Of a stretch of DNA of 64,000 bases, positions 10,413-21,906 are shown piece by piece. The notes beneath the pieces are model-generated. The model did no database searches, was not told where the DNA came from, and saw nothing but the letters and a program-made list of their open reading frames with translations. Source of the stretch: Eledone cirrhosa (taxonomy: Eukaryota); NCBI GenBank assembly GCA_964016885.1, contig OZ024742.1:119598001-119662000 (forward strand). Reading direction: 5' to 3'. The translations under genes and the position numbers were made by a program. Numbering within the stretch: position 1 is the first letter of the stretch; each line of letters opens with the position of its first letter.

Positions 10413-11038
10413 TGGAAAATTTGGGACCCTGATGGCTGAGCTCCTGCTGTTTCAACAGCTAGAATGCACACACACACACACACACACATTTAAAAAGAAA
10501 CAGAAGGCTGGACTGGAAACAGGATTATGGCTTACCAATTTGGTGTTATTTTAATGGCAAACTATGCTGTTACAATAACACCAAATGGGTGAGAATAGGG
10601 GATAGATTTGGTTCAGAGATTGCTCACCAATTTGGTGTTATTGTAACGGCATAGTTTGCCATTAAAATAATATCAAATTGGTAAGCCGTATCTTATATAA
10701 CTAATTTTGCAATCCACACCTGATGAAATCGTCAAAGTCTTGCATCACGATTGGATGATCAAATTGGACCATTGAAATACGTTTAGCGTTATTGCAAAAT
10801 TGAAACTTTAAAAAATATTTCCAGTCTGTCCTTCTGTTGTTTTTGTTGAATATTTAACGAATTTTTAATGAATATTTAATAAATTTTTAATAAATATGTT
10901 CCTGCCATGGAATACCACATCTGGTTCACATAATGTTCACATAATGTTCACATAATGTTGCGTGCTTTAATTTATTGCATTATCGTTTACTAACTAGAAT
11001 GACCAGTTCTAACCCTTGGTAAACAATATCAACAAATG
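10413..11038. mobile_element. Palindrome-rich insertion between (TA)n tracts (Penelope-like or MITE composite)
   Basis: 68-bp inverted repeat (10526-10593 / 10623-10690), outer 19-bp inverted match (10501-10519 / 10818-10836), degenerate hammerhead-like motif at 10703-10801, and gttcacataat x3 near 10925. Confidence 0.4.
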
Positions 11039-11650
11039 GTATATATATATATATATATATATATATATATATATATATATATATATATATATATATATAT
11101 ATATATCATTAAATGATGGTGATGATGATATACATATATATATATATGTATATATATGTATATATATGTATATATATATATATGTATATATATATATATA
11201 TATATGTATATATATATATATGTATATATATATATATATGTATATATATATATATATGTGTATATATATGTGTATATATATGTATATATATATGTATATA
11301 TATATGTGTATATATATGTATATATATGTGTATATATATGTATATATATGTGTATATGTGTATATATATGTATATATATGTGTATATGTATGTATATATA
11401 TGTGTATATGTGTATATGTATGTATATATATATATGTATATGTATATATATGTGTATATATATGTATATATATGTATATATGTGTATATATATGTATATA
11501 TATGTATATATATGTATATATATCTATACATGTATATATGTGTATATATGTGTATATATGTGTATATATATGTATATATATCTATACATGTATATATGTG
11601 TATATATATGTATATATATGTATACATGTATATATATATATATATATATA
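11039..11650. repeat. (TA)n/(TATG)n microsatellite array
   Basis: Direct inspection. Confidence 0.97.
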
Positions 11651-13147
11651 AGACACCCAATAAAGTCCTATTATCCCCAACCCTTGCCTCATCATTGCTA
11701 CTAGTATTTGCTATCTCCTCCACCATATAATGCATCATCTGTGCCACAGCAGATGTGATTTTTATTACAATCATACTCACTCTAGCACCACTCCTTAATA
11801 ACTACTCTCAGTATCACTGTACTCTTCCACTTCTTTATTACTCCTCCATGTTTTTTTTTTACATCATACTACCCTATCAAATTTCACCACATCCATGATG
11901 TCATATCTGCTATTCATGTTAACCCACTTCTCCTAATCTTACCTCCAAACATGTATGCCATGGGTCAAGTACCTTTAGACCCTTCAGTTGAGTAATAACC
12001 AACAACCTCTCTAATGGCCGAGCCATGATAAAATGCATGCAGTACACTTGGTAAAGTAGTTGATATTAGGAAGGGCATTGAACTATAGAAACCCTGCCAA
12101 ACTAAGGGTCTACAAGACTCTTCAGTAGTGTCAAGGATACCACAACCTTCTTAGTGTTGGTGCTATGATAAAATCTTGCCATCTGGGAGAGCAGTAGCCC
12201 TGATACAGTACTGATTTGGTCTATGATGACCTGTCCAACCCATGTCAACATGGGTTAGATGTTAAACAATAAAGATGGTTATATATATATATAACCTGTC
12301 AGATAGTAGCAGTCATTCCATGATAAGATATACCCATGAAGTAATTGGCATTAGGAAAGGCATCCAGCTATAGAAACCATGCAAGCATGGAATATAGATG
12401 TAAAATGGTGATGTTAATATATTTTATTTTCAATTATCTATTGAAACCCTTATAAATCTACAGCAAATATCAATAAAGTTAATATATACTGCACAGGGCT
12501 GAAATATTAAGTTCTTTCTTGGATTAAAATGTTTTGTGGTATTTGTTTCGGCCGTCTGTGTTTTCAGTTTAAGTAACACTGTTGTCAACTTTGCCTTTCC
12601 TTCTTTTGATATCAATAAATATTGTACTAGACCTAGATGGCAGAATTGTTAAGGCATTGGATACGATGCCTTGTGGTATTACTTTGACTCTGAATATAGC
12701 AAGTGGGGATATGCTTCTTCAGTCAACTGCCTTCACAATTTCAGTGACATAGACAGAGGAAACATTAGCAAATGATCAGTTAATGAGCATCCACAAAGCC
12801 ACTGTTCAAAGGTACCTTGTATCTTGGTGAGAAACTTTTCGGGTACAAGCTCATGGATAGCCATAACCAAAAGAATGGGGAACTTATAAAATAATTATAT
12901 AGCCATCCTTCTATTCATCCATAACTCCTAATGAAGTTGTAGGGATGCCAGTGTGATCTAGGTTATGTCTTGGGTATTTAAAACCTAGCGGAACCCATCC
13001 CATTCCAGTATATGTATATATGTATGTGTGGGTATATATATATATATATATATATATATATAAGTTATTCAGGGTTGAATCGGAGGTAACCACAGTAAGT
13101 AAGGTACTCAATACATAGCAGAGTATACATTTTTTAATATAGAAGAG

Positions 13148-13194
13148 CTTCTACAGGACTAGAACTGTTTCATTCGTGAGAAATCATCAGGAAG
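13148..13194 (-). ncRNA. Type I hammerhead ribozyme, left arm of palindrome
   Basis: Minus strand reads cuuc-CUGAUGA-uuucucacgaau-GAAACAG-uucuaguc-CUGUA-gaag. Same family as the 21818 copy. Confidence 0.7.
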
Positions 13195-13249
13195 AGCTTC
13201 CTGATGATTTCTCACGAATAAAACAGTTCTAGTCCTGTAGAAGCTCTTC
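13191..13249 (+). ncRNA. Hammerhead ribozyme copy with core mutation (GAAA>AAAA), right arm of palindrome
   Basis: gaagagcuuc-CUGAUGA-uuucucacgaau-AAAACAG-uucuaguc-CUGUA-gaagcucuuc. Stem I is 10 bp and G12 is replaced by A at 13220. Confidence 0.55.
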
Positions 13250-19600: not shown

Positions 19601-20706
19601 ATATATGTATATATATATATGTATATATATATATGTATATATATATATGTATATATATATATGTATATATATATGTATATGTATATATATGTATATGTAT
19701 ATATATGTATTTGTATATATATATATGTATATGTATATATATATATGTATATATATATGTATATATATATGTATATATATATATATGTATATATATATGT
19801 ATATATATATATGTATATATATATGTATATATATATGTATATATATATATATATGTATATATATATATATATGTATATGTATATATATATATATGTATAT
19901 ATATATATATGTATATATATATATATGTATATGTATATATATATATATATGTATATATATATATATATATATGTATGTATATATATATATGTATGTATGT
20001 ATATATAAATGTATGTATGTATGTATATATATATATATATATATATGTATGTATATATGTATGTATGTATGTATGTATGTATATATAAATGTATGTATGT
20101 ATGTATATATATATATATATATATATGTATGTATATATGTATGTATGTATGTATATATATATATATATATGTATGTATATATGTATGTATGTATATATAT
20201 ATATATATATGTATGTATATATGTATGTATGTATATATATATATATATATGTATGTATATATGTATGTATATATATATATATATATATGTATGTATATAT
20301 ATATGTATATATATATATATATATGTATATGTATATATATATATATGTATATATATGTATATGTATATATATATATATGTATATATATATATATGTATAT
20401 ATATATATATGTATATATATGTATATGTATATATATATATATGTATATATATATATATGTATATATATATATATGTATATATATGTATATGTATATATAT
20501 ATATATGTATATATATATATATGTATATATATATATATGTATATATATATATATGTATATATATGTATATATATATATATGTATATGTATATATATATAT
20601 ATGTATATATATATATATGTATATATATGTATATGTATATATATGTATATATATATATGTATATATATATATATGTATATATATATGTATATATATATAT
20701 ATGTAT
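16674..20706. repeat. (CT)n followed by a ~3.9-kb imperfect (TA)nTG array
   Basis: Direct inspection. This is the source of the spurious 900-1400 aa Y/I/M/C/V ORFs. Confidence 0.98.
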
Positions 20707-21066
20707 GTGACTTCTGGTGTCACGCAGTAATACAGAGTACCCGACCTCCCATGGGTACAAGCTGAAGCATATAGACAATATGCCAACCCCCCCCCCACTG
20801 CAAGGTGGTCGTGGAGATGCCATGGCAAAAAAGCACCCAGCCCACACTGTAAAGTGGGCCTGTAGGCGCCACGAAAAAGCACCCAGCACTCACTGCAAAT
20901 GAGGTTGGTGTTAGGAAGGGCATCCAGCTGTAGAAATCAAGCCAAATCAGTTCCTGTATGAGCAAGGCATGGTCAGCCGACCAGACACTGCCCACAACAG
21001 GACAACCCGTCTAACCCATGCTAGCGTGGAAGAACGAACGTAAAACTGTGATGATGATGATGATGA
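20707..21066 (+). mobile_element. RTE LINE 3' end with (GAT)n tail
   Basis: Nearly identical to 49770-50119. Contains ggttggtgttaggaagggcatccagctgtagaaa and ccatgctagcgtggaa motifs. Confidence 0.88.
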
Positions 21067-21800
21067 TATGTATGTATATATATATGTATATATATATGTA
21101 TGTATGTATATATATATGTATATATATATATATATATGTATGTATATATATATGTATATATATATATATATATGTATATATATATGTATATATATATATA
21201 TATATGTATGTATATATATATGTATATATATATATATATATGTATGTATATATATATGTATATATATATATATATATGTATGTATATATATATGTATATA
21301 TATATATATATGTATGTATATATATATATGTATATATATGTATATATATATGTATATATATATATGTATATATATATGTATATATATATGTATATATATA
21401 TATGTATATATATATGTATATATATATATGTATATATATATGTATATATATATATGTATATATATATGTATATATATATGTATATATATATATGTATATA
21501 TATATGTATATATATATATGTATATATATATATGTATATATATATATGTATATATATATGTATATATATATATGTATATATATATATATATGTATATATA
21601 TATGTATATATATATGTATATATATATATGTATATATATATATGTATATATATATATGTATATATATATATGTATATATATATATATGTATATATATATA
21701 TATGTATATATATATATATGTATATATATATATGTATATATATATGTCTGTATATATGTATATATATATGTATGTATATATATATGTATATATGTATGTA

Positions 21801-21906
21801 TTTTTAATATAGATGAGATTCTACAGGACTAGAACTGTTTCATTCTTTAGAAATCATCAGGAATTACTTACTGTGGTTACCTCTGATTCAACCCGGAATA
21901 ACTTAC
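21801..21906 (-). mobile_element. Penelope-like pLTR remnant between TA/TG arrays
   Basis: Second copy of the element at 13061, with the two blocks contiguous. Confidence 0.6.
21818..21864 (-). ncRNA. Type I hammerhead ribozyme in Penelope-like pLTR fragment
   Basis: Minus strand reads auuc-CUGAUGA-uuucuaaagaau-GAAACAG-uucuaguc-CUGUA-gaau. Stem I is auuc/gaau, stem II uuc/gaa, stem III ACAG/CUGU, with a GUA cleavage triplet. Confidence 0.7.

Follow-up and report, generated by a model that had tools for sequence, protein, structure and literature searches.

The five hammerhead motifs in the first intron of a putative calcium-channel subunit gene of Eledone cirrhosa are very probably ribozymes in short, often head-to-head joined end fragments of abundant Penelope-like elements (PLEs), which were inserted at (TA)n and are likely inert passengers on either strand. 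The window, i.e. the whole stretch of 64,000 nucleotides that was analysed, had been described in an initial annotation as carrying ribozyme elements whose sense copies may be purged or inactivated. The motifs are real and the kind of element is known; the strand hypothesis is unsupported. The following features were assigned in the window.

4691..4839, + strand: predicted exon 1, first coding exon, signal-peptide-like (splice signals, phase)
4840-57324, + strand: 52-kb intron 1 of the alpha2-delta-type gene, which holds all five motifs
10489..10688, - strand: rearranged, inverted 5' part of a family C insertion, without ribozyme core (sequence comparison with other copies)
10689..11039, + strand: 3' end of the family C insertion; hammerhead with C3 10720, G12 10774 and A17 10785, stems III and I damaged
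13063..13194, - strand: long arm of family A insertion 1; intact hammerhead with C3 13190 and full tail (descriptor scan)
13195..13250, + strand: short inverted arm of family A insertion 1; hammerhead with C3 13201 and G12>A at 13220
15031..15110, - strand: short arm only of a family B (young) insertion; dimer-type hammerhead with C3 15101
21801..21863, - strand: inverted short arm of family A insertion 2; intact hammerhead with C3 21860
21864..21907, + strand (pre-mRNA strand): main arm of family A insertion 2, consisting of the last 44 nt of the tail, without ribozyme
57325..57406, + strand: predicted exon 2 (splice signals and phase fit)
63708..63827, + strand: predicted exon 3 (splice signals, phase)

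The phases are consistent across the three predicted exons. Exon 2 presumably resembles alpha2-delta, and exon 3 searched alone gave no match in Pfam or PDB. Intron 1 was assigned to an alpha2-delta-type gene because VWA_N and VGCC_alpha2 exons lie on the + strand 11-232 kb downstream of the window. As judged from sequence, the host is an auxiliary calcium-channel subunit gene of the alpha2-delta type, not a pore subunit gene, and the earlier placement in a calcium-channel intron 1 holds in this more precise form. Upstream of the gene, degenerate RTE-like LINE frames with a C2H2-like end were found on the minus strand (204-2000). A minisatellite (45-bp unit, 13.8 copies, 98% identical) occupies 8570-9188. 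The region 16783-22183 is about 5 kb of (TA)n/TG microsatellite, nearly pure except where a SINE-like repeat and a family A insertion break it up. TG/TA tracts in the PLE untranslated regions (UTRs) of this genome resemble this array and may seed such arrays.

All five motifs were recovered at their places by reading of the sequence and a descriptor scan. Scanning of both strands of the window gave three complete motifs, with C3 at 13190, 15101 and 21860 and each on the - strand, which have the type I hammerhead core (CUGANGA, GAAA, UH) and its three stems with an open stem I. The two sense motifs are damaged, as had been reported: that at 13201 carries G12>A, and stem III of the copy at 10720 is broken. 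In the latter the core is intact, TACGTT replaces the family palindrome in stem III, and stem I has a mismatch too. The motifs had been counted as five separate ones; they are present as such, but represent four insertions of three families, the motifs at 13148 and 13191 being the two arms of a single head-to-head insertion. The long arm of this insertion begins 4 nt above the core (predicted cut 13152/13151); the short arm begins at A(-6) and is predicted to form a hairpin of about 56 bp with the long arm. The hammerhead at 15101 has a palindromic stem III and U at position 17, and its arm begins at A(-8) after a G. The family C insertion at 10.7 kb is about 550 bp long; in the insertion at 21.8 kb the ribozyme is present only in the inverted arm, and the main arm is sense. 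The antisense run in the window amounts to three insertions (two-sided p 0.25) and is likely due to chance. No hammerhead model was among the Rfam matches listed (150 of 194 in one search, 51 of 51 in another); these were microRNA-type hairpins only and were rejected. Two neighbouring strong hairpins in SINE-like repeats (14570-14725) also have microRNA-like Rfam matches.

The motifs are not chance folds, because exact cores are abundant, reversed controls gave none, and a strict descriptor gave 34 matches (14 sense, 20 antisense) in 839 kb and none in decoys. Genome-wide, the exact family A core was found in 879 copies (436 and 443 on the two strands) and the exact family B core in 2047 copies (1024 and 1023); the reversed control was 0 in each case. 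The 188-nt fold-back at 13063-13250 has many relatives with 91-95% identity and differing junctions. An inverted arm was present in 22 of 30 family A and 18 of 30 family B loci (the first 30 pattern-picked loci each). In the pattern-picked loci of both families the 3' ends of the arms cluster at two points, about +49 to +67 or +135/+139 from C3. The stem I pair across 171 family A copies was C-G in 91, A-U in 18 and A-G in 23, i.e. a partial C-G/A-U exchange. At least 43 hammerhead sequence clusters were obtained from about 2 Mb of fetched genome. Short family A pieces are also present in two other organisms.

The damage of the window's sense motifs fits the family background. Family C is old (80-86% identity among copies), and damage is the rule in it, because only 9 of the other 23 copies have kept every part intact. 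G12 was altered in 6 of 148 family A copies not chosen by exact pattern, which is comparable to the background. Core positions were changed more often than non-core positions in family A (5.5% vs 3.7%, n=148, p 0.003); this excess was confined to the junction-near C3-A6/A9 (C3-A6 49/592, G12-U16.1 25/740).

Parent elements were searched by following the inverted arms at loci L139, L184 and L206 to a coding end, and a search with this end gave 1495 candidates. In families A and B a reverse transcriptase (RT) frame with a C-terminal GIY-YIG endonuclease lies upstream of the pLTR. The RT motif YRDD was read directly; Pfam gave a weak GIY-YIG match (E 0.045) and no RVT_1 match on the parent frames. 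At locus L233 the frame end is followed by a TG/TA-rich UTR and the family A hammerhead on a single strand, at L353 a TATA box, hammerhead and tail (pLTR) precede the open reading frame, and at L270 a 388-residue frame stops 168 nt above the family B core. The parent proteins of the two families are 36% identical. The EN+ PLE features of tandem pLTRs, an inverted 5' copy, a one-sided tail and a hammerhead in the pLTR are present (L353; pattern-picked loci). The Hydra-clade motifs DKT, CxCX5C and CxxC/CxH round E and N, without CCHH, were found in family A at L236 and L252; for family B (L270) this holds for the C-terminal motifs only. The N-terminal RWK site reads RWR in the single copy read. 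By these motifs, families A and B resemble Hydra-clade PLEs following the definition available in PMC8557442; the homologues found for the parent proteins had uninformative names. A coding parent of family C was looked for and none was found.

The assignment to Penelope-type type I hammerheads was right, and so was the targeting of (TA)n. The description as non-autonomous ribozyme elements applies to the fragments as inserted, which are non-coding, but is unsupported in the sense of a separate class, since families A and B run without a break into the RT-endonuclease frames of their parents. Two candidate parents were rejected: at L135 an RT-GIY-YIG frame, which had looked like the parent, stands 1.2 kb from a family A core, above it, but belongs to another family and ends at its own (TA)n, and Neptune-type frames near family A copies are nested neighbours. 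Most coding family A copies shown (L227-L256) end within their own TG/TA-rich UTR, without a 3' hammerhead. Most family A hammerhead copies begin in this UTR or below it, and the internal microsatellite seems to split the element. The genome contains 10,597 GIY-YIG candidates, with many Neptune-type PLE families often nested in one another's (TA)n tails. Some of these families have open frames of 844-1096 residues, and some (L207, L208, L211, L209) seem to be without a canonical CUGANGA core in the 3' region.

Strand distribution was analysed in four long genes, the host gene and three ion-channel genes, with a total of 839,161 bases. Gene spans and orientation were taken from Pfam exon hits and may include nested or neighbouring genes. 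A homology library, built on the 43 clusters of all the loci obtained, gave 100 hits, of which 7 below 70% identity were removed and 93 kept. Core-intact copies numbered 28 sense and 32 antisense, and damaged copies 18 and 15 (Fisher p 0.52, binomial p 0.70); the sense share of the intact copies has a 95% interval of 0.34-0.60. Intact copies without an inverted partner were found 15 times in sense and 17 times in antisense, and only 9 of these were of monomer type (4 sense, 5 antisense). The host gene alone contains 7 sense and 10 antisense core-intact copies. A strong strand bias is ruled out in the four-gene sample, with which a mild bias (about 40:60) is compatible. That the intact copies are all antisense, as had been claimed, is correct in the window but not beyond it. 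Equal frequency on both strands, which the initial annotation had named for a genome-wide count as evidence against its own proposal, is about what the tabulation gave in the four-gene sample. Intact hammerhead cores are apparently tolerated in introns of this genome, at about one per 14 kb of intron in this sample.

Several properties of the copies may account for this. Among the 60 core-intact copies 28 lie behind their own reverse complement, which is located upstream on the ribozyme's own strand in 28 of 28 cases. The host transcript would reach the antisense arm first, and the ribozyme is predicted to be trapped in a long hairpin. For the unit at 13063-13250 a hairpin of -104.5 kcal/mol (z -14.9) was predicted, and forcing the hammerhead fold in this context would cost 65 (+) or 77 (-) kcal/mol. 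Stem III is too short for activity as a monomer in 42 of the 60 intact copies, which are dimer-type; unpaired copies are mostly of this type, and their cleavage probably depends on the element protein. The 4-bp stem III of family A counts against inertness, and this family may cut alone. Strand selection would be weak because paired copies are masked and unpaired copies are mostly dimer-type or protein-dependent. Sense copies are therefore likely tolerated, as far as fold prediction and analogy indicate: paired ones would be masked, most are dimer-type, and the PLE hammerhead would need protein.

The head-to-head form would arise from nicks that the element protein makes in both strands of (TA)n DNA, with reverse transcription beginning at two internal sites of the pLTR RNA, as can be assumed with Frangieh et al. 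(2024). Both cDNAs would extend through the ribozyme, still uncleaved, toward the 5' end of the RNA before being joined head to head. No pile-up was seen at the cut site; by hand tally, 9 of 26 matches there and 18 of 23 at the next base were true starts.

The proposal that intact sense hammerheads cut the pre-mRNA and are hence purged or mutated draws on the window, with its three complete antisense motifs and two damaged sense motifs, and on Xenopus, where retrozymes, counted without regard to strand, are mildly depleted in introns according to the accessible text of bioRxiv 10.64898/2026.07.22.740005. It is very unlikely in view of the balanced counts of intact, unpaired and unpaired monomer-type copies in the four genes, and of the intact sense copies within the host gene itself. 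Damage affects 14 of the 23 other family C copies too, and the arm with G12>A is predicted to be masked regardless. For a strong effect the proposal is largely refuted. An independent, self-propagating SINE- or retrozyme-like class, multiplying from its own short or circular RNAs, would account for the very high copy number and the sharp common 5' start of the short copies. This origin is improbable as well, but less so: the window holds no head-to-tail monomer arrays, the sequence continues into coding parents, short family A copies are without the upstream TATA box, and junctions vary from copy to copy. End fragments of coding PLEs, carried passively, are the preferred explanation.

The short copies share a fixed 5' start at stem I. 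In family A, 21 of 30 hits stop no more than 13 nt above C3, and the stretch from 14 to 65 nt contains no hit end. Arms starting after a non-parental base were found genome-wide 2522 times at A(-6) in family A and 278 times at A(-8) in family B; long copies with a point change are also counted in these totals (28 of the first 100 rows in B). A TATA box, TATAAATA, is usually present 29-31 nt above A(-6) among the 56 long family A copies compared, and the start lies in YCAGCTT. A TATA box at this spacing was not seen in family B and not evident by eye in other families. Junctions were tallied by hand in the first 100 rows of each pattern listing; the tally for B leaves out 24 arms joined directly to (TA)n, 16 junctions templated by the other arm and the 28 variants. 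A G stood before the start at 27 of the 32 informative junctions of B and at 23 of the 33 of A, and an extra base was present on both arms in four rows (three junctions). A G copied from the cap occurs at the 5' ends of retroelements. The thousands of short copies are likely run-off cDNAs extended to the capped start of a transcript. There is an even chance that the hammerhead stands at the first nucleotide of a transcript driven by TATA box and initiator, and that the short copies are strong-stop-like cDNAs with a cap-copied G, joined head to head and thereby silencing their own ribozyme. Such cDNAs would be primed at internal start sites of the 5' pLTR and extended to the cap.

Reverse-transcriptase stalling or microhomology at stem I, instead of a transcription start, could also produce the common 5' start, and is a quite conceivable, if somewhat less probable, reading. 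The AGCT at the family A junction is palindromic, the other arm can template many junction bases, and untemplated G and T at R2 junctions are described in the accessible text of PMC13000458. Unbiased loci gave too few informative junctions, and G is frequent at a control position in B too (about 10 of 20, hand tally). The excess of G before the start over this control (Fisher p 0.012) and the position of TATAAATA in long family A copies argue for the capped start. In the literature searched, main articles being covered, no report of a PLE start at stem I together with an additional G was found; promoters in pLTRs have been described (PMC2377424, PMC3846280, as far as accessible), and for Drosophila virilis the accessible part of PMC4209133 mentions an intron that ends at helix I. 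If the capped start is correct, genomic junctions would locate PLE transcription starts with single-base precision, and by cleaving, the hammerhead would decap the element RNA. Once confirmed, the start would bear on the open question of PLE hammerhead function, for which decapping is directly testable.

The following comparisons refer to the accessible parts of the sources. Recently active Penelope families are listed for an octopus in PMC13282606, where ribozymes are unmentioned in that part. Non-LTR retrozymes (bioRxiv 10.64898/2026.07.22.740005) are likewise non-coding, PLE-derived and equipped with type I hammerheads, but form head-to-tail tandem arrays, in contrast to the single or head-to-head fragments found here. 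The retrozyme hallmark of head-to-tail tandem monomers, each with a hammerhead, was absent from the window and the pattern-picked loci. The minimal PLE hammerheads of Cervera and de la Pena (2014; PMC4209133) are also of type I and mostly single or in opposite-strand pairs, with a palindromic stem III as in families B and C. Family A differs by a 4-bp stem III with an 8-nt loop, and A and B show U-U where G10.1-C11.1 is usual. With the Hydra-clade EN+ PLEs (Craig et al., 2021; PMC8557442) the elements share the C-terminal endonuclease, DKT, the CxCX5C linker, CxxC/CxH round E and N without CCHH, the hammerhead in the pLTR, (TA)n insertion and the inverted 5' copy. They differ in that the one N-terminus read has RWR for RWK, in a long 3' UTR of family A that is rich in TG/TA, in arm ends about 70 nt apart instead of 30-40, and in a copy number in the thousands.

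As in the elements found here, the arms of the anole element Poseidon PAc (Frangieh et al., 2024; PMC11167929) end at two fixed points below the hammerhead, the targets are AT-rich, and the RNA template is uncleaved, without a cut-site signal. Poseidon PAc belongs to another clade, and its hammerhead overlaps the first ATG, whereas that of family A lies in the 5' leader above it; the 5' start of short copies is left untreated in the accessible text. The study reports that AT-rich DNA is nicked on both strands, that RT starts at two internal points, that protein assists the hammerhead and that the main template is RNA left uncleaved; the two arm ends and the lack of a cut-site excess found here agree with this. 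A single minimal motif did not cleave and dimers cleaved at a low level in PMC4209133, and the apparent tolerance of intronic cores fits PLE hammerheads that are weak or protein-assisted in vitro.
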